Origin: Planctomycetota bacterium
Lineage (GTDB): Bacteria > Planctomycetota > UBA11346
Assembly (NCBI GenBank): GCA_003136555.1
Contig: PLEW01000036.1
Location: forward strand, 6,640 to 70,639
Direction of reading: 5' to 3'
DNA: 64,000 bases
Of this stretch, positions 30,335 through 52,095 are shown in pieces (position 1 is the stretch's first letter; every line of letters starts with the position of its first letter). The notes beneath the pieces were generated by a model that was not told the DNA's origin, did no database searches, and saw only the letters and a list, made by a program, of their open reading frames with translations. The position numbers and the translations under genes were made by a program.

Positions 30335-31225
30335 TCAGCCGATGATCTGCAGCAGCTCGCGCGCTGCGGCGATATCCTCATTCATCGCGGTGATCACCGC
30401 CTTGAACGCGGTCTTGTCCAGGCCCAGATGCCGCCACGCCTGGGGATCGAGCTCGGAGGCATCGAAGCTCCCGGGAGAACGCATCCCGCGCAGGAAGCAC
30501 AGGTGCTCGACCACCATGCTCATCGCCGTCAGGCCAGGGACCTTCGCCTGCGCCAGATCATGCTGGTGGCGGATGGCATCGGTCAGGTCGGCATCGAGCT
30601 CCCACGTCTGGCAGAGCCAAGCCGCGATCTCGGCGTCATCGGTCTTGAGCACCTCGCGGGCGGCAGCGGTGAAGCTCAAAGAGCGCTCCTTGGCAATGGT
30701 GATGATGGCGCGGGTCTCTTCGGGGACGTTTTCGACCAGGATGAGCTTGCCGATGTCCTTGAGCAGGCCAAAAGTGAAGGCGTGTTCGGGATCGCAGACC
30801 TTGTTCATGCGGGCGATCGTCCTGCACATGCCGGCGGAGACGGCGCTGTGCAGCCAATACGCCTTCATGTTGAATTGCGCCTGCTCCTGCTTGAACAGGC
30901 TTACCACCGACACCGACAGGGCGATGGAGCGGATGGTGTCGAAGCCGAGCATGCTGACCGCCTGCTCGAGGCTGGTGACCGATTCGCGCACGCCATGGAC
31001 GGCGCTATTGATGAGCCGCAGCATCTTGGCGGACATGCCGGCATCCTTGACGATCACCGCGGTGATCATCGGCACGGTGGTGGCGGGATCATTGGCCATG
31101 CGCCCGACCCGCGTGGTGATCTCGGGCAGCGATGGGATGGTATGGATGCATTCGATGAGCTCGGCGAGCGAAGGGCGTTCCGATATCATGGTGGTGACCT
31201 CGCTGGGATCGCTGGGTGCTTGCAT
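30335..31225 (-). CDS. HDOD domain signalling protein
   Basis: HDOD region ...TIPSLPEITTRVGRMANDPATTVPMITAVIVKDAGMSAKMLRLINSAVHG... Last gene of the large minus-strand signalling block. Confidence 0.85.
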   Translation of the reverse strand: MQAPSDPSEVTTMISERPSLAELIECIHTIPSLPEITTRVGRMANDPATTVPMITAVIVKDAGMSAKMLRLINSAVHGVRESVTSLEQAVSMLGFDTIRSIALSVSVVSLFKQEQAQFNMKAYWLHSAVSAGMCRTIARMNKVCDPEHAFTFGLLKDIGKLILVENVPEETRAIITIAKERSLSFTAAAREVLKTDDAEIAAWLCQTWELDADLTDAIRHQHDLAQAKVPGLTAMSMVVEHLCFLRGMRSPGSFDASELDPQAWRHLGLDKTAFKAVITAMNEDIAAARELLQIIG

Positions 31226-31237
31226 GTGTCAACGCTC

Positions 31238-31732
31238 CTAAGACGGTACCGCGACCCGCACGTCAGCCGCGGGTAGCAGGATCATGCGCTCGCCCGGCCG
31301 CGTGCTGCGCAGCAGACGCAAGCCGACGCAGAGCATGCGGCATTCCTCGCGCTCCAGCCCGATCGCCAGCTGATCGAAGCCGTTCTCCAGGTATTCGACG
31401 CAGTCGGCGGTGCTCGCACCCATCACCTTGGCATAGCGCTCCAAGCTGTCCAGGCAGGCCTCCACCAGCTCCGGCTCGGTGCCGAAATCGGCGAGCGCGA
31501 TCACCGCGCGGATGGCGCCGCGCAGCGGATCTGGGCGGGGTGGGAGGACCGGTGGACGATGCATCGGTGTCATGGCCATCTCCTGAGCACATCCTGCGCC
31601 AAATGCCGATGGCGCGGCGCGCGGCGCGCTATCGTCACTGTCGGGCCCGGCGAGATCGATCATGCCGGCGGCGATGGCCAAGAGATGCGGGCGCGAACCG
31701 TCCACATGCCTGCACGTATCCTCGGATTTCAC
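31238..31732 (-). CDS. hypothetical protein
   Basis: ORF upstream of the HDOD gene on the same strand. The C-terminal half is protein-like (EPELVEACLDSLERYAKVMGASTADCVEYLENGFDQLAIGLE). True start uncertain; there are internal Met codons. Confidence 0.4.
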   Translation of the reverse strand: MKSEDTCRHVDGSRPHLLAIAAGMIDLAGPDSDDSAPRAAPSAFGAGCAQEMAMTPMHRPPVLPPRPDPLRGAIRAVIALADFGTEPELVEACLDSLERYAKVMGASTADCVEYLENGFDQLAIGLEREECRMLCVGLRLLRSTRPGERMILLPAADVRVAVPS

Positions 31733-32306
31733 AGCGGGAAGGATCGCTGCGCGGCGTGGCCGGCCGGGTGGCGCAGCGTGCCAACGGGATGCATGGGCCT
31801 GATCGCGCGTATACCGGCTTCCCCCGCCTCCGGCTCGATCGTGCTGCGGTCAACCCCAACCAATGTGGTTGGGGCCCCATTTCCTGGCTCTGGTCGGCTG
31901 GCGACCTGCATAGGCATCCCACAGCATCGGGGCGTACTGCAGCGCGTGAGCAGCTGCTTGGACAGGCCTGTGGGGCCGCACGGTGCGGAAGCCGGAGGAA
32001 GCCGCAGCGGGATGGCTGCTCACAGCGCGATCAGCAGCAGGTCGCATGCGGCTTGGGTCATCGCCAGCATGGCGGCGATGAACTCCGTGCCGTCGACCTG
32101 CTCGGGGCGTAGATGCGGCCACCGCTGCTGATCGATCACCTACCGACCGCAGTCGCCGGACGAGCGCATCGCCCGCCCCGCGCACCGCTGGTCGACGAGC
32201 ATGCGCATGGCGACCTGCTCGGGAACGGGGCGCCTAAAGATGGCGATCTGGCAGCGGGTGGCATCGACCAGGCCGCAGAGAGAGCACCGAAGGCACTGCT
32301 CCTGAG

Positions 32307-32738
32307 TTAGGGCGAGACCCCTTCACCTGGTCGGCCGGCAGCATCGCCGTCCGCCGCCATCGGCCCCGGGCGAGCAACCACCGGGCCGGTACGCGGCGCC
32401 GACGACTTGCGGAAGACCTCGGTCAGGGTCCCATGGATGGGCAGCAGCTTGTCCATCCGCGTCCTGGTCATCACCATGCGATTGCGCTCACTGACATGGA
32501 CCAGGTACAACGAGCCGTTGATCCGGCGGAAATCCCGGCACAGGCTGGCCAGGCTGCCGAAGGCGATGCTGGGGAGCTCGACCGCCTCTTCGCAATCGAT
32601 GATCACATGCTGGACCCCGCTATCGATGAACTGGCGGTTCACCTGATCGCGGAAGCCCAGCCAATCATTCTGGTCGAAGTGCCCGGGCAGCTCGATGACG
32701 CACTGCCCATTGACCATCCGGGTGTTCAGCATGGTCAT
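32307..32738 (-). CDS. STAS-domain protein (anti-sigma-factor antagonist-like)
   Basis: SpoIIAA-like layout (VIELPGHFD...HVIIDCEEAVELPSIAFGSLASLCRDF...LYLVHVSERNRMVMTRTRMDKLLPIH). The start overlaps the CheY stop (ATGA). Confidence 0.7.
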   Translation of the reverse strand: MTMLNTRMVNGQCVIELPGHFDQNDWLGFRDQVNRQFIDSGVQHVIIDCEEAVELPSIAFGSLASLCRDFRRINGSLYLVHVSERNRMVMTRTRMDKLLPIHGTLTEVFRKSSAPRTGPVVARPGPMAADGDAAGRPGEGVSP

Positions 32739-33130
32739 ACCGCCCCCGTTTCGGCTGCGCCGAGCGGAAGGCCTTGCGCCGCCTTTTCGACCGCACCGAT
32801 GATGCGATCGGCGTCGAACGGCTTGACGATGAAGTCGCAGATGCCGAGCTCGACGGCGCGGCGCATGGACTCGCGCTGATCGACCGCGGTGACCATGATC
32901 ACCTTCGCAGTGGGGTTGATCTGGCGGATGCCGGCGAGTGCGGCCAGGCCATCGGCATTCGGCATCACGATGTCGAGGGTGGTGATGTCCGGGCGCAGCT
33001 CGCGGTAGCGAGCGATGGCCTCGTTCCCATCCGCGGCCTCGCCGCAGATGCGGTAGCCGAGGGGCTCCAGCGCATCGCGGATGAGCTTGCGCATGAACAG
33101 CGCGTCGTCGACGATGAGAATGCTGATCAT
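32735..33130 (-). CDS. cheY: CheY-like single-domain response regulator
   Basis: MISILIVDDALFMRKLI...DIVMPNADG...VIMVTAVDQ...DFIVKPF. Receiver-domain Asp/Thr/Lys positions are all present. Confidence 0.9.
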   Translation of the reverse strand: MISILIVDDALFMRKLIRDALEPLGYRICGEAADGNEAIARYRELRPDITTLDIVMPNADGLAALAGIRQINPTAKVIMVTAVDQRESMRRAVELGICDFIVKPFDADRIIGAVEKAAQGLPLGAAETGAV

Positions 33131-33441
33131 CCCTGACTCCCCTGGCTTGACGCCTCGTCTGCGGACGGGGCGATGGCGAATTGCAGCGCCCCGAGCTGGC
33201 TGCGCACAGAGCGGTCCCCGGTGAAGGTCAGCGAGCCACCCTGCTTCTTCATCAGCTCGCTGGCACGCAGGATGAAGGCCAGGAAGGCCGGCGACGCCAT
33301 GACCGTGTCAGCGGCGAAGGCCATGGTGATGGCGGTCTTGCCGTTGCGGATCGCGGCGCGCAGATGCGACGCCAGGGCCTCCGCCCGGCTCTGGTCGATG
33401 ACGCCGCTGGCCTTGATGATGACTGCTGTGGAATCTGACAT
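33127..33441 (-). CDS. STAS-domain protein (anti-sigma-factor antagonist-like), second copy
   Basis: MSDSTAVIIKASGVIDQSRAEALASHLRAAIRNGKTAITMAFAADTVMASPAFLAFILRASELMKKQGGSLTFTGDRSVRSQ. Start at ATG 33439..33441 with RBS GGAGAG. ORF-track stop at 33127. Confidence 0.7.
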   Translation of the reverse strand: MSDSTAVIIKASGVIDQSRAEALASHLRAAIRNGKTAITMAFAADTVMASPAFLAFILRASELMKKQGGSLTFTGDRSVRSQLGALQFAIAPSADEASSQGSQG

Positions 33442-33482
33442 GGTTGCTCTCCGAGGAGGTGGTGGGCGCTCAGCGTTCCTGA

Positions 33483-34016
33483 TCACAGCTCGATGCGATT
33501 ATGGCCGAAGTCCTCGACCACGAGGGTGAGATCCTCAGGGGTGAATTCGACCCTCCGCCCCAGCCGTCCGCCGACATGGTGGGCGATGACCGGGATGCGC
33601 GCCGCTGCAAGCGCGTCGGTGACCGAGGCGATGTTGGATGCGCCGATGTCGCGAGTGTAGTCCAGCGCATGGTCGAACATGCGCGCCCCCCCGGCGAATT
33701 TGCAACGCAGGCGGCTGCGCGCTGCGCCATGGGCGGTCAGCGACTCCAGCAGGCAGTCCACCGCATGGTCCGCATACTTCCCCGGCAGCATGCCGCGTGG
33801 CCGGCCCTCGGCATGCGGCAGGAGCACGTGCGCCATGCCCGCCAGGCGGATCTCGGGGTCGTAGATCACCAGCCCGATGCAGCTGCCGAGGACGGACTGC
33901 AGGCGATTGGGAGAACGCGTGAGATGGACCTGGCCGATCAGCACCTTGATGTCCTTGATCTGGCCCTTGCGCACAGCTTCGGTGCTAATCATGGCCGGCT
34001 CCGCGAGTGATGGCAT
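33483..34016 (-). CDS. cheD: chemoreceptor glutamine deamidase CheD
   Basis: CheD core GQVHLTRSPNRLQSVLGSCIGLVIYDP...GMAHVLLP with the catalytic Cys-His arrangement. An alternative start at 33992 sits 4 nt after the cheC stop. Confidence 0.85.
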   Translation of the reverse strand: MPSLAEPAMISTEAVRKGQIKDIKVLIGQVHLTRSPNRLQSVLGSCIGLVIYDPEIRLAGMAHVLLPHAEGRPRGMLPGKYADHAVDCLLESLTAHGAARSRLRCKFAGGARMFDHALDYTRDIGASNIASVTDALAAARIPVIAHHVGGRLGRRVEFTPEDLTLVVEDFGHNRIEL

Positions 34017-34590
34017 GCAGCACTTCCGGCGACGGTAGGAACACCAGGTGGATGGTCGGCCCGGAGCCGATGCAGGCGATGCGCGCCGTCACCACCACCG
34101 CATCGTCGGCGCAGGCGGCGGATTCGATCAGCAGCGCATCCCAGGCCGCGGTGCCGACATCGACCAGGACCACCGGGGCTAAGGGCACGGCGACGATGTC
34201 CATGCGGCTGGCCATGCCATTCATCATCGAGGAGAAGAGGATGTTGGCGGTCTCCTGGAGCATCGAGCGCTCCATCTCGCCGATGCCTCCAGCCTGCTCC
34301 TCGCCGGGCAGTTTCCCGCCGAGGCAGACCACCAGCTGGGTGGCGTCAGCATAGGAGAGCTGCACCGCGGCATTGCCCGGCAGCCCGCCGTTCACCCGCG
34401 AGGCGATGGTGATGGTGGTCGCACCCGCATCCTCGCCTTCCTGGGGGATGAGATCGAGCCGGACTGAAGCGACCGAGCAGACCTCGATGCGGACCTCGCG
34501 GTGGAGCCAGCGGGACAGCATGGAGCCGGCATTGCCGGCCCCATGGCGCGCGCTGGCGGCGAGATCGTCGAGATGGATCTGGCTGATCAT
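33985..34590 (-). CDS. cheC: CheC-family CheY-P phosphatase
   Basis: CheC/CheX/FliY-type repeats (LQETANILFSSMMNGMASRM; ESAACADDAVVVTARIACIGSG). Start adjacent to the cheA stop. Confidence 0.75.
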   Translation of the reverse strand: MISQIHLDDLAASARHGAGNAGSMLSRWLHREVRIEVCSVASVRLDLIPQEGEDAGATTITIASRVNGGLPGNAAVQLSYADATQLVVCLGGKLPGEEQAGGIGEMERSMLQETANILFSSMMNGMASRMDIVAVPLAPVVLVDVGTAAWDALLIESAACADDAVVVTARIACIGSGPTIHLVFLPSPEVLHAITRGAGHD

Positions 34591-34591
34591 G

Positions 34592-37500
34592 TCAGGCTCC
34601 TGCGCTCAGCAGCGGACGCTTCGCGCACGCCAGGTCATGGATGCCATGGATGTCGAGGATCAGCGCGACCCCCCCATCCCCCAGCACGGTGGCGCCGCTC
34701 AATCCGCGCACCCGGTTGAACTGCGCCCCCAGGGGCTTGACCACGATCTCCTCGTCGCCGATCACCTGGTCGACGGCGATGGCGATGGTCTCGCTCCCGC
34801 CCTTGGTGATCACCGCCCGCAGCAGGCCGCCGGCGGCGGCCAGGGGCACGATGCCGACCACGCGCTGGAGGTCGACCAGGCTGATCACCTGGTCGCGCAG
34901 GAAGATGACCCTCCCCTTGCCGTCCACGCTGCGCACCTCACGGCCGTCGATCTCGACGATCTCGCGCACGCAGTCGAGGGGGAAGGCGAAGCGGGCATCG
35001 CCGATCTTCACCAGCAGGGAATCGATCATCGCCAGGGTCAGCGGCAGGGCGATGGTGAAGGTGGCGCCCTTGCCGGGCTCGGAGGCGATGGCGATGGTGC
35101 CCTTGAGCGAGAGCACCTTGCTGCGCACGATGTCCATGCCCACCCCGCGGCCTGAGATGTTGGTGATCGCGGCGGCGGTGGAGAAGCCGGGCAGGAAGAT
35201 GAACTGGTAGATCTCCTCGTTGGTCATGCGATTGGCCGCCTCGGCGGTCACCAGGCCACGCTCGATCGCCTTGCTCCTGATCCTCTCGACCGACAGGCCG
35301 CGCCCATCGTCACGAACCTGGATGCAGATGGTGCTGCCGCGATGGAAGGCCTCGAGGTGCACCATGCCCTGGGGGGCCTTGCCCGCCGCCACCCGTTCCG
35401 CGGGCGTCTCCATGCCGTGATCGATGCCGTTGCGGATGAGATGGGTGAGCGGATCGCCGATCTCATCGATGAGCTTCTTGTCGAGCTCGGTCGAGTCACC
35501 GGAGGTCACCAGCTTGGCGTCCCGACCACGCTCCTTGCACAAGTCGCGCACCAGCCGGTGGAAGCGCTGGAAGAGCGGGCCGATCGGCACCATGCGCGAT
35601 TGCATCACGCTGTGCTGCATGGCGCTGGTATGCCGGTGCAGTTCCAGGGTCGTGTCGCGGGTGCGCCGGATCTCGTCCTGCGCCCGGCGCAGGAGGGAGA
35701 TGCTGGAGAGCTGGCGCGCCGAGGCGGTGCCGCCGCCATCGCCGACTGCCAGCTGCTCGAGCGCCCGGGCATCCACGCCGTCGAGCAGCCGGACCAGCGT
35801 ATCGACCTGCTGGGTCAGCCGGGCCTTGGTGATGGCCAGCTCGCCGGCGGTATTCAGCAGGTGGTCGAGGCGCATGGTATCGACGCGCACCGTGTCGGCA
35901 GCGGCAACGCCATGCCCGGCTGCCACCTTGGCCTCCGGCTGGACGGAGGCATTTGGGCCGCCGGCGCTGCGCGCCGGGGCCTCGCCCGCGGCCAGGGGAT
36001 CGATTGACCAATCGCGCACCAGGTCGCAGGTGATCGCCTCGATGAGCTCGGCGAGCGGCGCGAGCGAGGAGATCACCGCGCACAGCGATAGGGAAGCGCC
36101 GGTGCCCTTCTCGAGATCGCCCCTGGTGGGGCGGGAATGGTGGATGGTCGCCACCTTGCCCAGGTTCTCGAGGATCATGCGGAAGCGCAGATCGGGCAGC
36201 TGCGTATGCGCTGCGAGCACCAACCGCACCTTCCACAGCGGCTGCCCCGTGCAGGCGGCGCGGGCGGCAGAGAGCTCTTGTTCGCTCGGCGACCACAACG
36301 GCAGGCTGGCCTGCTGCGCCGCCGCCTTGGCCAGCTGGCGGGCGCAGGCATCATCGAGGGCGGCGCAATCAGGGGACGACTCCTCGCCGCGCTCGACGCG
36401 ATCAATGCAGGTCTGCAGCGCATCCTTGGTGGCGAACAAGTCGCTCATCACCCCGGCATCGAGGCGCATGCGGCCATCACGGATCGCTGCCAGCAGGCTC
36501 TCGCCTTGGTGCGAGAGGCGGGCCATCTCGTCCAGGCCCATGCTCGCGCTGGCGCCCTTGAGCGAATGCAGATGGCGGAATACGGCGTCGACATGCAGCA
36601 TCTCCTCCGGACTGCCTTCGCAGGCCAGCAGCGACGCATCCAGCTCGGTGAGCGCTTCCCGCGAGGTGCCGATCCACAGGGGCAGGTGCCTGGCCATGTC
36701 CGGCTTGACCGCCAGGCGCTCATGGCGCCTGGATGCCTTAGCGGGATCGCGGCCGATGCGCATCGCCTCGGACGTGCTGCCTGGCCCCGACAGCAGCCAC
36801 GCCTCGCCCGGGGGCACCTCCAAGGCCGCCAGCAGCACGGCCGCATCCCCGGCGCAGAAGCCAAAGACGCCGATGCGCAGCTGGAAATCGCGCAGCGGCG
36901 CCCAGAGATCCTCCGGCCCGGAGACCAGCTGGATGATGCGTCGGATGCCCACGCCCTGGGAGATGGCGTCCATCGCCGCGGTGGCCCCACGGGAGAAATG
37001 CAGCAGGCTGTCGGCCTCGAAGAGCAGCGCGACCGCCTGCTTGCCCTCGCCCATCGCAACCATGGTCTCGCAGATGTCCTCCTCATCGAGCCGGCCATGC
37101 AGCCAGGACGGCGCCTGGCCGAGGTGCTCAGCGACCGGATCGTAGGCACGTGGGGGCAGGCTGGGAAGCTCCGCGGGCAGCGCCGGCTGCGGGAGCACGG
37201 CTGGCGCAGCGGTTGGCGGCCCCACGGGCGCGGCCGGTGCGCCAAGCACCCCTTCGAGGAGGCGGAGCGCCGGCTGGATGTCGACCTGGCTGGTGCAGCT
37301 GCCGGCGACATCCGCCATCAGCGAGCTGACCGTATCAAAGGAGCGGAACAGGGCATCGACCACCAGGGCGGTGAAGGTCACCTTGCCGTGCCGGATCAGA
37401 TCGAGCACGGATTCCATGAGGTGCGTGACCTGGGCGATATCGGTGAGCTTGAGGAAGCCGGCCGCACCCTTGAGGGAATGGGCGGCGCGGAACATCTCGG

Positions 37501-37633
37501 CGATGTCATCGGGACCGATGGCGCGCTGCTCGACCGCCAGCAGCCGGTCATTGAGCGTGGCGATATGCACACCCGCCTCGTCGAGGAAGCCGGTGACCGC
37601 ATCGGAATCGATGCCGAAATCATTGGCAGCCAT
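34592..37633 (-). CDS. cheA: chemotaxis histidine kinase CheA with two Hpt domains, dimerisation, HATPase and C-terminal CheW-like domains (no REC)
   Basis: Hpt boxes HSLKGAAGFLKL and HSLKGASASMGL. HATPase_c G-boxes (NGIDHGMETPAER..., SGRGVGMDIV). C-terminal CheW-like ...ILDIHGIHDL. Confidence 0.9.
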   Translation of the reverse strand: MAANDFGIDSDAVTGFLDEAGVHIATLNDRLLAVEQRAIGPDDIAEMFRAAHSLKGAAGFLKLTDIAQVTHLMESVLDLIRHGKVTFTALVVDALFRSFDTVSSLMADVAGSCTSQVDIQPALRLLEGVLGAPAAPVGPPTAAPAVLPQPALPAELPSLPPRAYDPVAEHLGQAPSWLHGRLDEEDICETMVAMGEGKQAVALLFEADSLLHFSRGATAAMDAISQGVGIRRIIQLVSGPEDLWAPLRDFQLRIGVFGFCAGDAAVLLAALEVPPGEAWLLSGPGSTSEAMRIGRDPAKASRRHERLAVKPDMARHLPLWIGTSREALTELDASLLACEGSPEEMLHVDAVFRHLHSLKGASASMGLDEMARLSHQGESLLAAIRDGRMRLDAGVMSDLFATKDALQTCIDRVERGEESSPDCAALDDACARQLAKAAAQQASLPLWSPSEQELSAARAACTGQPLWKVRLVLAAHTQLPDLRFRMILENLGKVATIHHSRPTRGDLEKGTGASLSLCAVISSLAPLAELIEAITCDLVRDWSIDPLAAGEAPARSAGGPNASVQPEAKVAAGHGVAAADTVRVDTMRLDHLLNTAGELAITKARLTQQVDTLVRLLDGVDARALEQLAVGDGGGTASARQLSSISLLRRAQDEIRRTRDTTLELHRHTSAMQHSVMQSRMVPIGPLFQRFHRLVRDLCKERGRDAKLVTSGDSTELDKKLIDEIGDPLTHLIRNGIDHGMETPAERVAAGKAPQGMVHLEAFHRGSTICIQVRDDGRGLSVERIRSKAIERGLVTAEAANRMTNEEIYQFIFLPGFSTAAAITNISGRGVGMDIVRSKVLSLKGTIAIASEPGKGATFTIALPLTLAMIDSLLVKIGDARFAFPLDCVREIVEIDGREVRSVDGKGRVIFLRDQVISLVDLQRVVGIVPLAAAGGLLRAVITKGGSETIAIAVDQVIGDEEIVVKPLGAQFNRVRGLSGATVLGDGGVALILDIHGIHDLACAKRPLLSAGA

Positions 37634-37635
37634 GA

Positions 37636-38499
37636 TCAGCGCTTCCTGTAGATGGTGGGACGCACGTAGGAGAATTCGCTGCTGCGATCGTTGAGGGTCT
37701 CTGCACCGCCCAGGATCAGCCAGCCACCCGATCTCAGCCGGGCGCTGACATGGCGCATCACCGTGGCCTTGCTCTCGCCGTCGAAGTAGATGAGCACGTT
37801 GCGCAGCAGGATCAGGTCGTAGGGCTTGCCCGAGGATGCCTGCTGGAGGTTGTGCTGGCGGAAGCTGACCAGGCGGCGCAGCTGCTCCTGCACCTGGTGC
37901 CCGCTGTTGTCGGGCAGCTTGGTGAAGTACTGCTTCAGGCAGCGCGGCGTCAGCTTCTGGAGCGCATAGGCGGAGTAGATGCCCCTGGCCGCGCGCTCGA
38001 GCACCTGGGTGTTGATGTCGGTGGCATCGATGTGCACGCCATGGGCGCTGCCAGAGAGGCCCGCGGTCAGGGCGATGGCCAGGGAGTAGGCCTCCTCACC
38101 GGTCGAGCTGGCGGCGCTCCAGGCGCGGAAATCGGCAGAGGCCGGCACCTGCTGCCGCCAGTGCGGCATGATGGTGCCGAGGAGGAAATCCCAGTGCTGC
38201 TTGTGGCGGAAGAAGAACGTCTCATTGGTGGTCAGGGCCTCGAGGCAGGCCTGGAACTCGTCCTGGTGGCCGGGTGCCGTGACATAGGCGTGGTAGGCGC
38301 TGAAGGAGGGCAGCTGGAGCGCCTCGACCCGCTTGCGCAACCGGCTCTGCACCAGGTTCTGCTTGGCATCCGCCAAGCGGATGCCGGTCTCGCGGTACAT
38401 CATCTCCTGGAACAGCTTCATGTCGCTATCGCTGAAGTGCAGCTCAGCGGGAGTCGTCAGAGACGAGGGGCTGATGCGGGTCGGCATGAGGGTGGTCAT
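37636..38499 (-). CDS. cheR: chemotaxis protein methyltransferase CheR
   Basis: CheR N-terminal and SAM-MTase domains (NETFFFRHKQHWDFL..., SAASSTGEEAYSLAIAL, LRNVLIYFD). Start at 38497..38499 inside ORF 37636..38628. Confidence 0.9.
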   Translation of the reverse strand: MTTLMPTRISPSSLTTPAELHFSDSDMKLFQEMMYRETGIRLADAKQNLVQSRLRKRVEALQLPSFSAYHAYVTAPGHQDEFQACLEALTTNETFFFRHKQHWDFLLGTIMPHWRQQVPASADFRAWSAASSTGEEAYSLAIALTAGLSGSAHGVHIDATDINTQVLERAARGIYSAYALQKLTPRCLKQYFTKLPDNSGHQVQEQLRRLVSFRQHNLQQASSGKPYDLILLRNVLIYFDGESKATVMRHVSARLRSGGWLILGGAETLNDRSSEFSYVRPTIYRKR

Positions 38500-38523
38500 T
38501 GGTCGCTCGTCCTGCCTATCCCT

Positions 38524-38540
38524 TTGCACCCGATGTGCCA
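38524..38540 (-). promoter_or_regulatory. sigma-54 (-24/-12) promoter consensus TGGCAC-ATCGG-GTGCAA on the minus strand, about 25-40 bp upstream of cheR
   Basis: Reverse complement of 38524..38540 is TGGCACATCGGGTGCAA. The GG and GC dinucleotides are spaced exactly as in the TGGCACG-N4-TTGCW consensus. An NtrC-type activator gene lies in the same block. Confidence 0.5.
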
Positions 38541-43614: not shown

Positions 43615-45240
43615 TCACGCTGGCGACGGCGCTTCCGGCAGCAGCAGGCGGAACGATGAGCCGGCGCCGGGGTGCGAGTCGAGCAGCAGATGACCGTGAT
43701 GCGCCACCATGCATCCGACCACGGTGGCCAGCCCCAGGCCGCTCCCCTGCCCGGGCGCTTTGGTGGTGAAGAAGGGCTCGAAGATGCGGTCCTGGATGGC
43801 CTCGGGGATGCCGATGCCGTCATCCGACACGCTGATGGCGGCGAAAATGCCCTGGATCTCCTGGGCGCAGATGCGGCAGCGATGGCCTGTGACCGTCTCG
43901 CGCGACACCCCGATGCGCACCCGCCCACCGGCCCGCAGCGCATCGCGGGCATTGATGCAGAGGTTGAGCAGGGCGTTGAAGAGCTGCTCGCGGCTGCCGC
44001 TCACGCACGGACCCGGCTGCTCGAGCGCGAGCTCCAGGGTCTTGCCATCGCCGATAGTGCAGCGCAGCAGGGACTCCAGGTCGGCGACCATCGGCGAGAG
44101 GCAGATGGCCGTCATCGCCGGCTGCCCATGGCGGGCGAAGGTGAGTAGATCGCGGACCAGCGCCGCCGCCGTGGTCGATGAGCGCTCGATGCAGGAGAGC
44201 CGATGGCTGGTCGCGGCATCGCCGCGGCAGACCTGCTGCACCAGTGAGAGATTGGCGAGGATCACCTGCAGGTGGTTGTTGAAATCATGCGCCAACCCGC
44301 CGGCGAGGCGCCCCAGCGCTTCCAGCTTCTCGCTCTGGTCGAGACGTTGGCGCTGGGCGAATGCATCGGTGATGTCCCACACCAGGCCGATCACGCGCTG
44401 GCTCGCGTCGGGAGCCCCGCTCTGGCGGCCGCGGATGCGGATGCGCCGGCGCACGCCGTGATGGGTCCACCAGGCATCGATCTCGATGGTCTGGCTGCCT
44501 GAGAATCCCTGCGACCAGGCGGCGATGATGGCGGGGCGCTCCTCGGCCGGGAATCCCGCCATCATCTCCTGCCATCCCATGACTGCCGAGTCGTGTTCAA
44601 GACCCAGGATCGCCGCGGCCTCATGACCGAAGGAGATGGCTGAGCCGGGGCCATCGATCTGCCAGGTGCCCATGCCGGCGGCCGCCAGCGCCAGATCGAG
44701 GCGTGCCTGGCGATCCAACGCCGCCCCCTCCGCCAGGTGGCGCAAGGCGCTCTCATCGACCGCCTGGCGCGCCAGGCGGTCGTTCGCGGTGCGCAGCGCG
44801 GCGGTCAGCTGGGCGACCGACAGGTGGACGGCGACCCGTGCCAGCAGCTCACCGACGATGACCGGCTTGGCGATGACATCGCTGGCGCCTACTGCAAACG
44901 ATCTGATGCGCTCCTCGGCATCCTGGCTGGCGCTGAGGAACAGCACCGGGATGCCGGCAGTGTGGGGGTCGTCGCGCAGGCGGCGGCAGGTCTCGATGCC
45001 ATCCATCTCCGGCATGCGGATATCGAGCAGGATGAGGTCCGGCCGGCGCGCGGTGACCGAACGCAGGGCATAGGCGCCTCCTGGTGCCTGCCGTACCGTC
45101 AGTCCGTGTGCGCCCAGGATCGCGCCGAGGACCTGGAGGTTCTCCGGCACGTCATCGACGATCAGCACTTCGCCGCTCAGCATCGGGGTACTGGCGGACG
45201 GTTCGTTGCTGGCAGCTTGAGGCATGGACGTCCAAGGCAT
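43615..45240 (-). CDS. hybrid histidine kinase REC-PAS-HisKA-HATPase (receiver at the N-terminus)
   Basis: [14 protein letters not shown]...[11 protein letters not shown]...VLFLSAS. PAS. H-box [13 protein letters not shown]-boxes [11 protein letters not shown] and [11 protein letters not shown]. Exact start ambiguous; Met candidates at 45240, 45225 and 45183. Confidence 0.85.
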
Positions 45241-45381
45241 GGACCAGCCAGTGCGAACGCCATGCCAGGCGAGGGCGCGCACCGCTTGGCCGTCCGCCAG
45301 GCACTTACGCCCATGCCCTGCAGTGAGCCACCCCAAACATCGGGGTTGCCCACCACCTCTTGGGGCGCCACCGGCCGCCGC

Positions 45382-46772
<1,391 letters not shown>

Positions 46773-46776
<4 letters not shown>

Positions 46777-47555
46777 GTGCTCTCCTGCTCGGCGATGCGA
46801 TGGTGCAGACGCACGGTCACGGTGGTGCCCGTGCCCGGCTGGCTGGCGATATCGAGCTGGCCGCTGCATTGGGTCAGCACCCCGCGGGCGGTGGCCAACC
46901 CGAGCCCGACGCCGCGATCGGGCCCCTTGGTGGTGAAGAAGGGCTCCCCGGCTTTGGCCAGGGTGGGGGCATCCATGCCGATGCCGTTATCGCTCACCCG
47001 CACGCTGACCGGATCGCTCGGCAGCACCCCCCCGTCGACGACGATGGAGATGCGTCCGCGTCCGGTCCCGGCCCGGGCGATGCAGGCATCCCCGGCGTTC
47101 GAGAGCAGGATCTGCACCACCTCCTGGATGCCGAAGGGATTGGCGCGCACACGTGCGCGCCCACCTTGGGCCGAGATCTCCAGGTCGATGCCGGCCGCCT
47201 GCAGGCGGGTGCCCATCAGGCGCACCGCCGCCCTGACCGCGGTCATCACCTCGACCGTGACCATGTCCAGCCGCGCACGCTCGTCGGCGAAGCCGCGCAC
47301 GCTCTGGATCAGGTCGTCGATGCGATCGGCCTCGGCGATGATGCGCCGCATTTTGGCCTTGATCTCCGCCTGCGAGATGTCCCAGCCCTCCTCCAGGCCG
47401 ATGAGGATGCCTTCGGCGAAGCCGCGGATGCCGCCCAGGGGCTGGTTGATCTCGTGGGCCATGCCGCCGGCCATGTCGGCCAGGCCCTTGAGCCGGTGCT
47501 GCTGCATGCGGCTGATCATCGCCGCGTCATCGTTATATCCGGGAACGGTGGTCAT
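46773..47555 (-). CDS. soluble histidine kinase (HisKA-HATPase only); probable cognate kinase of the NtrC-like regulator
   Basis: H-box MAHEINQPLGGI. N-box LLSNAGDA. G-boxes DNGIGMD and GVGLGL. ATGA overlaps at both ends. Confidence 0.85.
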
Positions 47556-49570
47556 TGGGGTCGGCCCTCGAGGAGTGTACCCATCAGCTGGGAGAGCTGC
47601 CGGATGCGCACCGGCTTCTCGATGAAGGCCGCCAGCCCATCCTGGCGCAGCGCGTCGATGTTCTCGCCGGCGGTATGCCCCGACATGAGCACGATGAGCG
47701 CGCCGGGGTCCGCCCGCCTGATCGCCCTGAAGACGCCCGCGCCGCTCTGCTTGGGCATGATCAGATCGATCAGGCCGATGGCGAAGCGCGGCTGGGTCTG
47801 CTGCCAGGCGGCGATGGCGGCATCGGGGTCGGCGACGGTGGTGACCTCCCAGCCGAGATGGCGCAGACCATCGGCGAGCACCTCGCGCACGGTGGCCTGG
47901 TCATCCAGCAGCAGCACGCGGCCGGTACGGTGCTGCATGGCGGTAGTGGCAACGCTCACCGGCGTGCTCGCCGCGGGCGCCGCGGAGCTGCCCAGATACA
48001 GGGAGACGGTGGTGCCGCGGCCGGCCGCCGAATCGAGCGACAGATAGCCGCCATGGGCGACCACGCAGCCCAGCACGGCCGAGAGCCCAAGGCCCGTCCC
48101 CTTGCCCTCCGGCTTGGTGGTGAAGAACGGCTCGAAGATGCGGCCCTGGATCGACTCGGGGATGCCGATGCCGGTGTCGGCGACCGTCAGGACGGCGAAG
48201 TCGCCGCTGAAGGCCCGGCGCGAGACCTGGCAGAAGGCCTGCTCCACCGCCCGCCGTTCGAGGCTCAGCGACAGGCGCCCACCGTCGGGCATCGCATCGC
48301 GGGCATTGATGCAGAGGTTCAGGATCGCGTTCTCGAGCTGCCCGGCATTGCCCGAGACGACGATCGGCCCCGCGGGGATGGCGGCGGTGAGGGTGATCGC
48401 CGTCCCGAGCGAGCGCGAGGCCATCTGCACGGTCTGGCGCAGCAGCTGGCAGAGGTCGATGGTTGAGCGCTCGAGATCGCGACGCTTGGCGAATGTCAGC
48501 AGGTCGCGGATGAGGATGGTGGAGGCTTCGGCGGCCTTGCTGATGTTGTCCAGGTGGGCGGCGGCCTGCGGCGAGCCGGCGCCATCCAGGTGCAGGATGT
48601 CGACCTCGGCGGTGATGATGGCGAGCTGGTTGTTGAAGTCGTGGGCCACCCCACCGGCCAGCAGTCCCAGGGCCTCCATGCGTTCGCTCTGGATCAGGCG
48701 ATCGCGCAGCTGGTGCTCCTCGGTGATGTCCCAGATCACCCCGGCCATCTGCACCGCACCCCCCCCCGCGCGCGGGGGCAGCGGCCGGCCACGCAGACGG
48801 ATGCGGGTGCGCGCAGGGCCGTCCCCGCCTGCCGCAGCGGCGACTGGCGGAGTCCACCAGCCCTCGAGGTCGAAGCTCCCGCGGTTGCGCAGCGCACGTT
48901 CGAAGCGCAGGGCGATGCCCTCCTGCTCGGCCTGCGGGAAGGTCTGGATGATATCAGACCAGGCGAGCTGATGCTCCGCGGCCAGACCGAGGATGGCCCG
49001 GGCCCGCTCGTCGCAGCGGAAGGCGGCGCTGACCGGGTCGATCTCCCAGGCGCCCAGGGTAGCCGCTGCGAGCACCAGATCGAGGCGGGCGAGACGCTCG
49101 GCGGCGACCGTCTCGGCATCCCCGCGCCGGTTGGTCTCGGCCAGCACCTGGTCGGAGAGGCGGGCATTGGCCTGATCGAGCGCCTGGCGGGTGCGCCCGA
49201 GGGCGAGGTGGGTGGTGACCCGAGCGAGGACCTCCTCGGCCTGGAAGGGCTTGGAGATGAAGTCCTCGCCGCCGACGCGGAAGCTCTCGATGCGGTCGGC
49301 GGCGGCGTCGCTGGCGCTGAGGAACAGTACCGGGATGGTGGCGCTGGCGGGATCGAGCCTGAGCCGGCGGCAGGTCTCGAAGCCATCCAGCTCAGGCATC
49401 TGCACATCCAGGAGGATGAGGTCCGGGCGACGAGCCTGGACCGAGCGCAGCGCCATCGTCCCGCTGGAGGCGACCCGCACCTTCAGCCCATGGTCACGCA
49501 GCAGGTCGCTGAGCACGCGCAGGTTCTCCGGCGTGTCGTCGACTAGCAGGACTTCGCCGTCGCTGCTCAT
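47552..49570 (-). CDS. hybrid histidine kinase REC-PAS-HisKA-HATPase-REC
   Basis: N-terminal [14 protein letters not shown]...[12 protein letters not shown]-box [13 protein letters not shown]-boxes DTGIGIPE and [10 protein letters not shown]-terminal [13 protein letters not shown]...GLIDLIMP. Start at 49568..49570 with RBS GGAGGGGAG. Confidence 0.9.
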
Positions 49571-52095
49571 GACTCCCCTCCGGACGCGGCGACCAGGGCA
49601 TGCAGCCGGTCGAAGGCGCAGGCCTGCGCCAGCTCGCTGATCCCATCCGCCAGTCTGCGGTTCGACCAGGTGGCGGTCTGGGTGGAGATGGCGTGCAGGT
49701 CGCCGATGATGATCGCTTCGCGGATGCGGCCGAGATCCTCGTGCGGCAGGGCTGCCAGAGCGTTGCGCAGCTCGCCATCCGCGCCCGCTGCCGGGAGGCG
49801 CGGCGACTCCGAACCGCGTTCGCGCCACACGAAGTGGATGCCCAGCAGCTGTTCGATGGTGATGAACAGGTGGTCTTCACGGTAGGGCTTGTGCACGATC
49901 TCATCGCAGCCGCCCGCACGGATGCGCTGGCTGTCGGACTCGAAGGCGGCCGCGGTCAGGGCGATGATCGCCGGAGCCGGGCCGGGCAGCTGGCGGATCG
50001 CCGCGGCAGCGCTCAGGCCATCCAGGACCGGCATGTCGATGTCCATCAGGATGAGGTCGATGTGCTGCTCGCGGCAGGCAGCGATGGCGGCCTGGCCCTG
50101 GTCGACCGCCACCACCTGGCAGCCGGCCTGCGCGAGGATCTCCTGCAGCAGCGCCCGGCTCGCGGCATGGTCCTCGGCGACCAGCACCCGGGGCGCCGCC
50201 TGTCCGGGAACCAGGCCGATGACATCGCGGCGTACCGCCGCCCGGATCGCCGAATCGACGATGATGGCGGGAATCGCCAGAGTGAAGGCCGATCCGCGCC
50301 CTGGAGTGCTCTCCACTGTCAAGCGACCGCCCATGACCTTGGCAAAGCCGCGGCTGAGCGCCAGGCCCAGGCCCGAGCCATCGCCGCCGAGGCGGGCTGA
50401 ACGGGTCTGGACGAAGGGATGGAACAGCGTGGCGAGGTCCTCGGCGCTGATGCCGCAGCCGCTATCGCTGACGGTGACGCTCAGCTGAGTGTCCTGCCAC
50501 GAGGCCATCAGGGCGACACAACCCCTGGCGGTGAACTTGATGGCGTTGGACAGCAGGTTGAAGAGCACCTGGCGGAGCTTGCGCTGATCGGCGCGGATAC
50601 AGCGGGGCACATCCGCGGCCATGGTGACGCTCAGCTCCAGCCCCTTCTCGTGCGCCCGCTGGAGGAACAGGCTCTTGATGTTGTCGAGCAGGCCGTGCAG
50701 ATCGAAATCCTCGGGCAGGGCGGTGGTCTGCCCGGCCTCGATGCGCGACATCTCGAGCACATCGTTGATCAGCGACAGCAGGTGCTCGCCCGAGCGGTTG
50801 ATCACCTCCACCGCCTGGCGCTGCTGCGGGGCCAGGCGGTGATCGCGTACGAGCATCTGGGCATAGCCGAGGACCGCATTGAGCGGGGTGCGGATCTCAT
50901 GCGACATGCTGGCGAGGAAGTCACTCTTGGCGCGGTTGGCCTGTTCGGCCGATTCCTTGGCGCTGAGATAGGACTTCTCAAGCTGCTGGGCCTGGTCGAG
51001 GGCGGCGACGGCATCCTGCCGCGCCCGCTCCGCCTCGGTGATGGCGCGCTGCAGTTCGCCGGTGCGTATCGCAACCAGGTCCTCGAGCCGGTGGCGGTAG
51101 CCGGTCAGCTCGGCATCCTTGGCGGTGCGCTCGGTGATGTCCTCGTTGATCCCGACCATGCGCAGCGCTCGCCCCTGGGCATCGCGGATGCCGATGAAGC
51201 AGGAGCGGATGAGCCGGATGCTGCCATCTTGCCGGCAGATGCGGAAGGTGTGGTCCTGGTCCGGGCCATGCTCGACCGCTGCGGCGAGCAGCGCGGTGGT
51301 GGCGGCGCGGTCGAGCGGATGCACCAGCCCCACCCAGGCATCGAATCCGCGTGCGCTGGCGGCCGGTGCGCTGCCGTAGATGCGGCCCATGTTCTCGTCC
51401 CACACCAGCCGGCTGGTGCGCACCTCCCAATCCCACACCCCCAAACCCGAGGTGCGGGTGGCCAGGCTGAGGCGCTCGCGGCCGGCAAGCAGATCCGCTT
51501 GCGCCGCCCGCTCGCGCATCTGCAGCCCGAGCAGGTTGCCGAAGAACAGCACCGCGAAGGGATAGGTGAGCGGTACCGGCAGGATGCGCGTCAGGAAGCC
51601 ATCCAGGACCATCTGGAGGGGCAGCAGGAAGGCGGTGACCAGCCCCCAGGCGAACAGCATCAGCCCGAGGACGAGGTGATGCTTGAGGCGCAGCAGCTCC
51701 GGGCGGCCACCGACCCAGAAGAACACCACCGCACCGGCCGCCCCGCCGCCCATGATGGCGCAGATGCCGGAGAGCGCACCCAGGCCGCCGAGATGGAGGC
51801 GGTAGGCCGCCACCACATTCACCGCCACCAGCGCTGCGGGGATGCCGTAGAAGGCCCCGGCCAGGGCGACCAGCACCACCCGGGCATCGACGATCACGCC
51901 ATTGGCGAGGTGGATCGGCACCTGCATGCCGATCAGGGCGATGCCGGCGAACAGGCCGCCCATCACCAGGCTGAGCAGCCCCGGGTGAGCCAGGGGCAGG
52001 CGTAAGCGGATCTGGTTCTCCAGTCCGAGGAACACCAGCACCAGGGCCATGTTCTCGCCCAGGCCTACCAGCAGATCGATCGGTGAGATCATCAC
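49567..52095 (-). CDS. membrane-bound hybrid sensor histidine kinase (multi-TM sensor - PAS - HisKA - HATPase - REC - C-terminal helical domain)
   Basis: About 6 N-terminal TM helices. PAS (WDWEVRTSRLVWDENMGRIYG). H-box MSHEIRTPLNAV. G-boxes DSGCGISAE and GSGLGLALS. REC VLVAEDHAASR...ILMDIDMPVLDG. First gene of the block; GTG/ATG start at 52095/52092. Confidence 0.9.
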   Translation of the reverse strand: MMISPIDLLVGLGENMALVLVFLGLENQIRLRLPLAHPGLLSLVMGGLFAGIALIGMQVPIHLANGVIVDARVVLVALAGAFYGIPAALVAVNVVAAYRLHLGGLGALSGICAIMGGGAAGAVVFFWVGGRPELLRLKHHLVLGLMLFAWGLVTAFLLPLQMVLDGFLTRILPVPLTYPFAVLFFGNLLGLQMRERAAQADLLAGRERLSLATRTSGLGVWDWEVRTSRLVWDENMGRIYGSAPAASARGFDAWVGLVHPLDRAATTALLAAAVEHGPDQDHTFRICRQDGSIRLIRSCFIGIRDAQGRALRMVGINEDITERTAKDAELTGYRHRLEDLVAIRTGELQRAITEAERARQDAVAALDQAQQLEKSYLSAKESAEQANRAKSDFLASMSHEIRTPLNAVLGYAQMLVRDHRLAPQQRQAVEVINRSGEHLLSLINDVLEMSRIEAGQTTALPEDFDLHGLLDNIKSLFLQRAHEKGLELSVTMAADVPRCIRADQRKLRQVLFNLLSNAIKFTARGCVALMASWQDTQLSVTVSDSGCGISAEDLATLFHPFVQTRSARLGGDGSGLGLALSRGFAKVMGGRLTVESTPGRGSAFTLAIPAIIVDSAIRAAVRRDVIGLVPGQAAPRVLVAEDHAASRALLQEILAQAGCQVVAVDQGQAAIAACREQHIDLILMDIDMPVLDGLSAAAAIRQLPGPAPAIIALTAAAFESDSQRIRAGGCDEIVHKPYREDHLFITIEQLLGIHFVWRERGSESPRLPAAGADGELRNALAALPHEDLGRIREAIIIGDLHAISTQTATWSNRRLADGISELAQACAFDRLHALVAASGGES

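Follow-up and report, generated by a model that had tools for sequence, protein, structure and literature searches.

Chemosensory (Che) pathways that serve purposes other than motility are common and poorly understood. Among the described systems, the ancestral stage 1 and stage 2 members of class F7 in gamma-proteobacteria include cluster III of Vibrio cholerae, Che2 of Pseudomonas aeruginosa, and Che1 of Shewanella oneidensis (Ortega et al. 2020, PMC7184735; Fortier et al. 2022, PMC9855816). The stage 1 F7 cluster is composed of genes for an anti-sigma antagonist, cheY, cheA, two copies of cheW, an aer2-like 36H receptor, cheR, cheD, cheB, mcpA, a second antagonist, and a serine phosphatase, and the ancestral stage 1/2 systems have two or one STAS genes together with the serine phosphatase (PMC7184735). 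The che1 locus of S. oneidensis encodes CrsR, with the domain order REC-PP2C-anti-sigma, and the STAS protein CrsA, which control RpoS (PMC9855816, PMC6482189). The function of the ancestral F7-type combination of STAS protein and phosphatase has been described as unknown or as "possibly RpoS control" (PMC7184735, PMC9855816). STAS genes have also been noted in chemosensory classes of Campylobacterota, in which a REC-PP2C-kinase protein possibly acts on the receptor (PMC9239204). Here, a related cluster is described from contig PLEW01000036.1 of an uncultured Planctomycetota bacterium (assembly GCA_003136555.1). The analysis covered a 64-kb stretch of the ~89-kb contig (positions 6,640 to 70,639), which is called the window and has a GC content of ~68%. 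On its minus strand, genes for a chemosensory core and a partner-switching module lie next to an operon that encodes histidine kinases and an NtrC-type enhancer-binding protein (EBP).

The sequence-only reading of this DNA had regarded the pairing of a Che pathway with partner switching as unusual; the F7 stage 1/2 systems (PMC7184735) and the che1 locus of S. oneidensis (PMC9855816, PMC6482189) precede it. The general design is thus already known, and the cluster is a rare version of it, with a phosphatase/kinase protein fused to two receivers, a CheA with two Hpt domains, and CheC and CheD without CheB in the window. The testable addition is that expression of the Che and partner-switching operons appears to be gated by a dedicated sigma-54 activator. 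A literature search returned nothing relevant on planctomycete Che clusters with STAS genes, nor on sigma-54 control of Che operons. To our knowledge, the Planctomycetota are a phylum with almost no signalling genetics.

The locus shares with the F7 stage 1/2 systems the 36H receptor, the presence of CheA, CheW, CheR, CheD, and CheY in one cluster, the STAS genes accompanied by a serine phosphatase regulator, as described for those systems (PMC7184735), and the lack of flagellar genes nearby. By contrast, its receptor has a single HAMP domain and an N-terminal membrane topology with a four-helix-bundle (4HB) sensor, instead of the Aer2-like soluble PAS-HAMP organization of the F7 receptors. 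The window has CheC and lacks CheB, so that of the F7 combination of cheD, cheR, and cheB only cheR and cheD were found among the scanned open reading frames (ORFs). The CheA with two Hpt domains, the second receiver in the phosphatase/kinase protein, the gene order, and the predicted sigma-54 promoters with the neighbouring EBP-kinase operon also set the locus apart from F7, as do the hosts, which are Planctomycetota and others rather than Proteobacteria.

The partner-switching module resembles HptB-HsbR-HsbA of P. aeruginosa and CrsR-CrsA of S. oneidensis, in which a response regulator with PP2C and RsbW-like domains acts on a STAS protein (PMC6482189). The likeness is one of domain description, with that family seen only as remote REC-PP2C and REC-HATPase_c_2 matches. 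As expected beside such a regulator, STAS proteins with a putative phosphorylatable serine are encoded nearby. Several hybrid kinases of Pseudomonas feed HsbR through an Hpt protein, and three hybrid kinases are encoded here, with a standalone Hpt gene in the related locus L011; the Shewanella genes lie inside a Che cluster. The systems differ in that the regulator analysed here has the domain order REC-PP2C-REC-RsbW, whereas those of Pseudomonas and Shewanella have the three-domain order REC-PP2C-kinase. Moreover, two STAS proteins are encoded here, and the Hpt domains of the window are found in CheA, none of them standalone. The described systems act on RpoS, FlgM, and HsbD, whereas the genes around the present locus offer no candidate target.

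Predicted sigma-54 promoters and enhancer sites

Three sigma-54-type promoters, each paired with a conserved upstream activating sequence (UAS), are predicted before the gene for histidine kinase HK4 and before the two operons of chemosensory and partner-switching genes (Table 1). The sigma-54-type pattern TGGCAY-N5-nnGCA is located on the coding strand of three gaps between genes, 64–75 nt downstream of a tandem palindromic site of the form CCCCAA-N4-TGGGG...CCCCA-N3/4-TTGGKG. The gaps are 156 nt long before HK4, 330 nt before PP2C-cheW-mcp, and 407 nt before the operon that extends from cheR to STASb, and they coincide exactly with the predicted promoter positions.

The elements are conserved in related loci, which are designated by L numbers. 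The UAS half-sites of the PP2C gene are at positions -150 and -120 in the window and at -151 and -121 in L002 (Planctomycetota bacterium LBMAG53), and the -24/-12 element of the L002 gene, TGGCACgacggATGCA, has the same 42-nt offset from TGG to ATG. The regions upstream of the PP2C gene were aligned from six loci (alignment A4) and those upstream of cheR from four loci (alignment A5). The only invariant islands in both alignments are the UAS half-sites and TGGCA...GC; the invariant positions are TGGCA and GC in A4, and TTGGCA and GCA in A5.

A composite pattern, CCCCAA-N20-26-TTGGKG-N55-85-TGGCAY, was derived from the window, L002, and L004–L006. It occurs three times in the window, each time between genes, in the sense orientation, and with the TGG 41–42 nt before the start codon, and it is absent from 100 out of 100 dinucleotide shuffles of the window. 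The pattern is also present at the orthologous site upstream of the PP2C gene in four Planctomycetota loci that were not used in its derivation (L008, L009, L010, and L016). The PP2C-upstream regions of L004, L005, and L006, with a GC content of 32–49%, contain ACCCCAA/TTGGKGT palindromes and GG-N10-GC/GT sites. ACCCCAA is the only 7-mer common to five upstream regions from different phyla; dinucleotide shuffling gave no shared 7-mer of any kind (0/500).

An OprB-family porin gene and a strong terminator-like hairpin are positioned between the second mcp and cheR of L002 (16041–17830). They are followed by a UAS and a TGGCATgatacGCGCA site, an arrangement that fits cheR having its own promoter.

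The candidate protein to bind the UAS is the EBP, the gene of which is joined to those of HK1, HK2, and HK3 by successive 4-bp overlaps. It has the domain set of an NtrC-type activator: a receiver (Response_reg, 103.9 bits), a sigma-54 AAA+ domain (Sigma54_activat, 211 bits) with a GAFTGA-type loop, read as GSFTGA in the translation, and a Fis-type helix-turn-helix domain (HTH_8, 23.5 bits). The motif RWNRxxAAxxLxISYExLRWxIxK of the helix-turn-helix domain is common to the orthologues across phyla, and an unrelated EBP lacks it. HK3 is the likely cognate kinase of the activator, because their genes overlap by 4 bp; the HK3-NtrC pair recurs in L002, L004, L006, L008, L010, and L011. Orthologues of HK2 are present in L002, L010, and L011, and HK4 is encoded by some relatives (L009 and L011) and not by L002. 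The middle regions of HK2 and HK4 gave no PAS match in Pfam and are called PAS-like by eye only. The C-terminal extension of HK1 was considered as an Hpt domain and rejected: it has no Pfam match even at E = 10, and its single histidine is not conserved in L002 and L011.

Because conserved UAS and -24/-12 elements precede the Che and partner-switching operons, the EBP/kinase operon is probably their transcriptional gate. The sequence-only reading had presented the kinases as a cascade that feeds a sigma-54 activator. From the positions of these elements, the cascade is better described as standing upstream of the Che and partner-switching operons, and it reads neither as a parallel branch of equal rank nor as what the Che pathway controls.

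The candidate sigma-70-like promoter of the EBP/kinase operon is the only match of a consensus scan of 41000–54500, a number at chance level (shuffle mean 1.0), and is weak evidence on its own. Its spacer (52283–52301), ACCCCAttttTTGTGGTT, resembles the second UAS palindrome, ACCCCAggggTTGGTGTT, and the EBP may bind and repress its own promoter. An equivalent of this UAS-like spacer was not recognized in L002, the one relative inspected.

Table 1 Positions of genes and predicted regulatory elements in the minus-strand block of the window
Feature	Position	Strand	Description	Basis or remark
HK1	49567..52092	-	Membrane hybrid kinase: 5TMR-LYT, PAS_3, HisKA, HATPase_c, REC, ~95-aa C-terminal extension	Pfam; L001 gene call agrees
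HK2	47552..49570	-	Hybrid kinase, REC-(PAS-like)-HisKA-HATPase-REC; gene overlaps those of HK1 and HK3 by 4 bp each	Pfam, gene calls
HK3	46773..47555	-	Soluble HisKA-HATPase kinase, no sensor domain; 4-bp overlap with NtrC gene	Pfam
NtrC-type EBP	45382..46776	-	REC, sigma-54 AAA+, HTH_8	Pfam
HK4	43615..45225	-	REC-(PAS-like)-HisKA-HATPase; HK2 paralogue minus the C-terminal REC	Pfam
PP2C gene	41287..43284	-	REC1-PP2C(SpoIIE)-REC2-RsbW-like (HATPase_c_2) response regulator, 665 aa	Pfam
CheW	40742..41251	-	Directly after the PP2C gene in all relatives	Pfam, 135 bits
MCP	38907..40682	-	4HB_MCP_1 periplasmic sensor-HAMP-MCPsignal, 36H length	Pfam
CheR	37636..38499	-	Methyltransferase	Pfam, CheR 168 bits, CheR_N 57 bits
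CheA	34592..37633	-	1013 aa; two Hpt (P1), P2, P3, P4, P5; no receiver	Pfam
CheC	33985..34590	-	Predicted CheC-family CheY-P phosphatase	Motif S109-x3-E113-x2-N116-x22-P139
CheD	33483..33992	-	Receptor deamidase, possibly also methylesterase; gene overlaps cheC	Pfam, 87.8 bits
STASa	33127..33441	-	Short anti-sigma-antagonist-like protein	Pfam STAS_2, 24.9 bits, below cut-off
CheY	32735..33130	-	CheY-like single-domain regulator; orthologues in relatives 60–80% identical	Pfam REC, 101 bits
STASb	32307..32738	-	Anti-sigma-antagonist-like protein, Pro/Gly-rich tail	Pfam STAS PF01740, 42.5 bits
p111 and HDOD protein	30335..31573	-	Two-gene unit: 111-aa ORFan (31238–31573) and HDOD protein (30335–31225)
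Candidate sigma-70-like promoter	52279..52308	-	TTTACA-N18-TAGACT	Upstream of HK1-HK2-HK3-NtrC operon
Predicted UAS of HK4	45331..45365	-	CCCCAAgaggTGGTGggcaaCCCCGAtgtTTGGGG	Similar elements before HK4 in L009, L011
Predicted -24/-12 element of HK4	45252..45267	-	TGGCATggcgtTCGCA	TGG to HK4 start codon 42 nt
Predicted UAS of PP2C gene	43401..43436	-	Tandem palindromes CCCCAAccccTGGGccgctgaCCCCAggggTTGGTG	Invariant islands in six-locus alignment A4
Predicted -24/-12 element of PP2C gene	43311..43326	-	TGGCACagccgACGCA	TGG to PP2C start codon 42 nt
Predicted UAS of cheR	38623..38656	-	CCCCAAcatcGGGccctggtCCCAAcacTTGGGG plus further CACAActcTTGGG repeat	Kept in L002, L009, L014 (alignment A5)
Predicted -24/-12 element of cheR	38525..38540	-	TGGCACatcggGTGCA	TGG to cheR start codon 41 nt
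733-nt non-coding gap	31574..32306	-	Perfect palindrome CCCCAACCAcatTGGTTGGGG at 31853–31875	TGGCAC with poor -12 at ~31787

Composition and conservation of the cluster

Gene starts were taken from L001, a colinear and identical metagenome contig, and real genes were told from shadow ORFs by the GC content of third codon positions (GC3). The minus strand from 30335 to 52095 carries 17 genes, 16 of them with domain support and one a 111-aa ORFan. The run had been counted as twenty genes with no opposite-strand gene between them; the number does not hold, and by GC3 there is indeed no convincing plus-strand gene between the minus-strand ones. All the domain assignments that had been made for the block agree with Pfam searches of its genes, with CheC and STASa made firmer by family profiles, and the count of four histidine kinases, three of them hybrids, was right by Pfam. 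No equivalog model of NCBIfam scored above its cut-off for any of the ten proteins tested. The core had also been called CheB-less, and no CheB was found among the window ORFs scanned against Pfam; this holds for the window only, as in the Brocadiaceae-type relative L007 a cheB gene directly follows the second STAS gene.

Intergenic gaps of 156, 330, 407, and 733 nt, the last of them before p111-HDOD, divide the block into at least five predicted transcription units. The spacing of genes in cheR-cheA-cheC-cheD-STASa-cheY-STASb is -8 to 41 nt, and genes within the units other than HK1-NtrC are separated by gaps of 1–59 nt or have short overlaps. A scan for intrinsic terminators found none in 29500–41500 and four in 41000–54500, which equals the chance expectation and places none at a unit boundary. 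No RNA family exceeded the Rfam gathering thresholds in the whole window, including the 733-nt and 407-nt gaps.

The four-domain protein encoded by the PP2C gene is rare. It forms ~19 clusters at 90% identity among 5.8e9 proteins, and an exhaustive HMMER search found ~8–10 full-length representatives among 1.84e9 clusters at 50% identity. Of 185,579 species-representative genomes, nine encode it. All nine are metagenome-assembled genomes (MAGs), of which seven belong to Planctomycetota, one to Brocadiaceae, and one to a deltaproteobacterium, and it is among the Planctomycetota MAGs that the closest relatives are found.

The neighbourhood of the gene is conserved across phyla. Where enough DNA is available, the order that follows PP2C is cheW-mcp-cheR-cheA-cheC-cheD-(cheY)-STAS-(cheC2-cheY)-STAS, and the core of this order is kept in Planctomycetota, the Brocadiaceae MAG, the deltaproteobacterial MAG, and an unclassified bacterium. 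In the Planctomycetota loci and the deltaproteobacterial MAG, the DNA directly upstream encodes orthologues of HK3-NtrC, usually accompanied by hybrid kinases; in "bacterium M21", the pair is encoded divergently. The order HK-NtrC-PP2C-Che thus recurs in loci with PP2C proteins that are 39–72% identical and with a GC content of 32–68%. This synteny across phyla rules out chance juxtaposition for 32307–52095, which by the same comparison is a functionally linked cluster. The proposal that the run is one linked block is upheld for this part by the synteny and the shared cis-elements, and fails for p111-HDOD.

In the loci L004, L005, and L007, which are outside the Planctomycetota clade, cheD is followed by one more cheY gene, and the last CheY-STAS pair is preceded by a second CheC paralogue that is divergent, with 16–20% identity to the first; neither is present in the window or its clade. 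In L008 (Planctomycetota MAG GL61_DN_concoct_175), the sequence directly after the PP2C gene is the 3' half of STASb (4687–4950), which is 78% identical to residues 54–111 of STASb from the window. The core from cheW to cheY is gone from L008, and HK2-HK3-NtrC-PP2C and the UAS with the predicted sigma-54 promoter are kept. Either this deletion is natural or the assembly of L008 is chimeric.

The catalytic motifs of the four-domain protein (SpoIIE 119.9 bits, HATPase_c_2 54.1 bits) are conserved in the family alignment A1. The phospho-acceptor site of the first receiver, REC1, is intact, with D7, D8, D53, and K103 invariant. The metal-binding motifs of the PP2C domain (GGD182-184, D187, D202-x-x-G-H-G, D320-G-L, and DD370-371) and the N, G1, and G2 boxes of the RsbW-like domain (E568/N572, D603xGxG607, and G630..G634G635xG637) are kept. 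Therefore, both the PP2C and the RsbW-like activities are plausible. The second receiver, REC2, is canonical in the window, the Planctomycetota clade, and M21; two distant members have a degenerate copy, and the deltaproteobacterial protein has lost it. The same exhaustive HMMER search identified many REC-PP2C proteins of ~380 aa that match residues 2–378 of the four-domain protein, and many REC-HATPase_c_2 proteins of ~285 aa that match residues 393–663, one of which is complete and encoded next to a STAS gene. Because both halves also occur as separate proteins, the four-domain protein looks like a fusion of a REC-PP2C phosphatase with a REC-RsbW-type serine kinase. P0227, a candidate standalone REC-RsbW protein, was rejected as a truncated family member at the end of a contig.

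The two STAS proteins are the putative substrates of these domains. The family profile of STASa matches TM1442 (E = 1.2e-7) and RsbV (E = 2.9e-5), as well as SpoIIAA, and four of five homologues have a serine in the phospho-site column, which aligns with the phospho-site of TM1442. In STASb, Ser57 aligns with the phosphorylated Ser58 of SpoIIAA. Judged by these residues, the parts of the partner switch look catalytically competent.

Residues 183–509 of the MCP align with residues 189–515 of Tsr from Escherichia coli with one single-residue gap, which is membrane-proximal, and none in the signalling domain, a fit that gives the receptor its 36H length. The receptor has Tsr-like glutamate and glutamine methylation and deamidation sites, and the glutamines at some of them would need deamidation. 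The kinase core of CheA is similarly close to the structures of CheA from E. coli (320 bits) and Thermotoga maritima (290 bits). Its histidine motifs, FRAAHSxKG and FRxxHxxKG, are invariant in eight loci, and its two Hpt domains are the only ones in the block. Between them, residues ~165–320 form a conserved ~170-aa domain (HLGxxPxWLxGxLxxxD...) for which Pfam gave no match in the protein from the window; the CheA orthologue of M21 has a weak precomputed match to FimL_C.

The CheC-like protein scores 23 bits in Pfam, and its family profile matches the structures of CheC from T. maritima (1XKR/2F9Z) at E = 2.6e-26. It has only the second of the two CheC active-site motifs, in which S109, E113, N116, and P139 are invariant in eight sequences (alignment A3). 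The best NCBIfam model for CheD is the Thermotoga-type deamidase/methylesterase, with a score below cut-off, and CheD would replace CheB in adaptation. The CheC-CheD systems of Thermotoga and Bacillus are similar in that CheC fits the T. maritima structure, that cheD is adjacent to and overlaps cheC, and that the receptor here has glutamine at Tsr-like sites. They differ in that the CheC described here has one of two motifs and that no CheB, CheV, or FliY was found in the window; the non-planctomycete relatives carry the second divergent CheC and the second CheY that the window lacks.

A 36H receptor with CheC and CheD is more typical of the F classes than of the alternative cellular function (ACF) class. 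The presence of these three elements therefore points to an F-type (F7/F8-like) lineage, as judged by features, and the suggested membership of the system in the ACF class is unsupported.

Proposed mechanism and alternative explanations

The preferred interpretation, with a probability of about 0.55, is a two-tier cluster in which the EBP/kinase operon gates the sigma-54 promoters, and the chemosensory array induced in this way drives the partner switch. The first tier would be the translationally coupled HK1-HK2-HK3-NtrC operon, which is probably transcribed from a sigma-70-type promoter and would sense membrane or redox-type cues. Signals would enter through HK1 and HK2, and the EBP would be phosphorylated most likely by HK3. 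The phosphorylated EBP would bind the CCCCAA-N4-TGGGG / CCCCA-N4-TTGGKG sites and switch on the three sigma-54 promoters, which would drive HK4, PP2C-cheW-mcp, and cheR-cheA-cheC-cheD-STASa-cheY-STASb. The steps up to this point draw on sequence and comparative evidence.

The second tier would be the induced array, composed of the 36H MCP with its periplasmic four-helix-bundle sensor, CheW, and the dual-Hpt CheA. Adaptation would proceed by CheR methylation and CheD deamidation, perhaps with demethylation by CheD as well, and CheC would dephosphorylate CheY-P. Phosphate would pass from CheA to CheY and to the receivers in the four-domain protein; the hybrid kinases could possibly join by phosphorelay through one of the Hpt domains of CheA. 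The balance between the PP2C and the RsbW-like kinase would set the phosphorylation of STASa and STASb, and the STAS proteins would swap partners with the RsbW-like domain, releasing or capturing a sigma factor or some other effector as the target. For these later steps, including the pairing of kinases with receivers, the direction of the switch, and its output, the proposal follows the conserved catalytic residues and the analogy to HsbR/HsbA and CrsR/CrsA.

The arrangement in the related locus L011 bears on the route into the four-domain protein. There, two genes at 9226–9988 separate HK4 from the PP2C gene: one encodes a standalone Hpt protein of 130 aa (44.9 bits for Hpt in Pfam), and the other encodes a single-domain receiver of 125 aa, with the frames overlapping or nearly abutting. 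This packing suggests an HptB-like phosphorelay into the PP2C/kinase protein of L011.

Several observations weigh against the two-tier interpretation. The -12 elements are imperfect, with ACGCA, GTGCA, and TCGCA in place of TTGCA. The consensus TGGCAC-N5-TTGCW with at most two mismatches was found 25 times in the window against 31 expected, which is not above chance, and with at most one mismatch twice against 2.3 expected, the element of cheR being one of these two. As the consensus counts are at chance level, the case for sigma-54 rests on position, pairing with the UAS, and conservation. The shuffle statistic of the composite pattern for the window is partly circular, because the pattern came partly from sites in the window. 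The examined sequence of L005 contains no EBP gene, and no sigma-54 site was recognized before its cheR; in L011, there is no UAS directly before the PP2C gene, and the Hpt and REC genes occupy that place. In the three most distant members, REC2 has degenerated or been lost, so integration by two receivers cannot be a family-wide property. No gene in the vicinity encodes a candidate target for the RsbW-like domain, and the combination of CheY and CheC could signify ordinary control of motility.

If the two-tier interpretation is correct, a two-component/sigma-54 hierarchy can contain a chemosensory array as an inducible sub-module, and the partner-switch concept of HsbR/CrsR reaches beyond the Proteobacteria. 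The cluster is a compact, testable version of such a Che system with STAS and phosphatase genes in Planctomycetota. It offers three experimental handles: the predicted enhancer and three predicted sigma-54 promoters that tie the kinase/activator operon to the Che operons; the two-receiver phosphatase/kinase, the halves of which also occur as separate proteins, suggesting separable inputs; and the two invariant Hpt domains of CheA, through which phosphate could reach different receivers. A more far-reaching version, put forward tentatively and with well under an even chance of being right, is that the cluster represents a distinct, rare, cross-phylum Che class. In such a class, a sigma-54 activator with a CCCCAA/TTGGKG enhancer would license expression, and the fusion of REC-PP2C with REC-RsbW would integrate CheA, through one Hpt domain, with the hybrid kinases, through the other or a standalone Hpt. 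The fusion would write the states of two STAS proteins, the target would be new or not a sigma factor, and CheD would stand in for CheB.

It is unlikely that, as in the Che3-CrdS/CrdA system of Myxococcus xanthus, the Che pathway has the NtrC-type activator as its output, either instead of or in addition to being gated by it. CheA, or HK4 acting like CheS3, would then modulate NtrC-P, forming a single circuit that ends at sigma-54, possibly with positive feedback on its own operons; this explanation is close to the sequence-only reading. In M. xanthus, the Che cluster is likewise linked to an NtrC-type activator with its own histidine kinase: the output of Che3 is the NtrC homologue CrdA, on which the kinase CrdS also acts (PMC3147164). 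In Rhodospirillum centenum, the Che3 cluster contains the REC-histidine kinase CheS3, which takes phosphate from CheA3 (PMC3868531), and both HK4 and HK2 start with a receiver. The linkage of the EBP-kinase genes to the Che genes across phyla agrees with this explanation, and the location of HK4 behind a UAS and predicted sigma-54 promoter is consistent with a feedback loop. However, Che3 has no CheY and its output is the activator, whereas the locus described here has its own CheY, CheC phosphatase, and complete partner switch, which are the obvious outputs. Furthermore, the EBP is translationally coupled to its own kinase HK3, and HK4 is absent from L002. The predicted sites of the activator precede the Che operons, which places it upstream at least for expression, a further difference from Che3.

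A role in ordinary chemotaxis is quite unlikely. The pathway would serve the flagellar or pilus motility of planctomycete swarmer cells, with CheY signalling to the motor, CheC terminating the signal, and the STAS and PP2C proteins as accessory modulators of the receptor array. A transmembrane receptor with a periplasmic 4HB sensor is typical of taxis, CheC and CheD are typical of flagellar classes, and the 36H length is that of E. coli-type receptors; a REC-PP2C-kinase has been suggested to act on a chemoreceptor through its STAS target (PMC9239204). By contrast, the scan of window ORFs against Pfam revealed no flagellar or pilus gene, nor any sigma-factor or anti-sigma gene. The F7 stage 1/2 systems, which are the most similar ones described, have no control over the motor in the studied species and are linked to stress responses (PMC7184735, PMC9855816). 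The tight cross-phylum link to the REC-PP2C-kinase gene, which is always the first in the operon, argues for a central role of the switch.

That the block is a set of unrelated operons sharing a strand, with motifs that arose by chance or from composition, is highly improbable: the partition into at least five units, the truly unrelated p111-HDOD neighbour, and the chance frequency of plain sigma-54 consensus matches would agree with it, whereas the order HK-NtrC-PP2C-Che recurs across divergent loci, the UAS and promoter elements are at orthologous positions in loci outside the derivation set, and the shuffle controls are empty.

Neighbouring genes and the rest of the window

The HDOD protein (187.7 bits in Pfam) had been included in the signalling block and is better described as the product of a neighbouring gene. 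It has more than 150 clusters at 47–74% identity, and its orthologues in L023, L024, and L025 have unrelated neighbourhoods with no adjacent Che genes. The p111 protein has no Pfam family and forms only two clusters in 5.8e9 proteins; a distant homologue, recognized by its context, is encoded directly upstream of HDOD in L024. Since related genomes carry the pair or HDOD without Che genes, p111-HDOD is probably a separate neighbouring unit and not part of the core.

The 733-nt gap beside this unit was considered as a decayed cheB or other gene and rejected, as it contains no ORF with coding GC3 and no gene was called there in L001. The palindrome in the gap resembles the enhancer sites of the block, and no good -12 element was found near it. 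Upstream of the Che-unlinked p111-like/HDOD pair of L024 there is a UAS-like sequence, CCACAAcCTGGGGtgcgaCCCCAAcctTTGTGG (9330–9370), and the EBP may also control p111-HDOD.

The rest of the window has gene content typical of Planctomycetota, with PSCyt1/PSCyt2/PSD1, DUF1501, and 3keto-disac_hyd (DUF1080-type) proteins identified by Pfam; together with the Planctomycetota MAGs as closest relatives, this bears out the host type that had been read from the sequence. The minus-strand region 12832–17987 encodes a PSCyt1/PSCyt2/PSD1 protein of 1230 aa followed by a DUF1501 protein, a pair typical of the phylum. A sigma-54-like site with two mismatches, TGGCACgtgtcCTGTT, is located at 14341–14326, just upstream of the DUF1501 start. 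Two overlapping, adjacent minus-strand ORFs (23660–24007 and 23974–24624) both match DUF2252, at profile positions 226–330 and 8–112, respectively, and look like a single gene broken by a frameshift or an assembly error.

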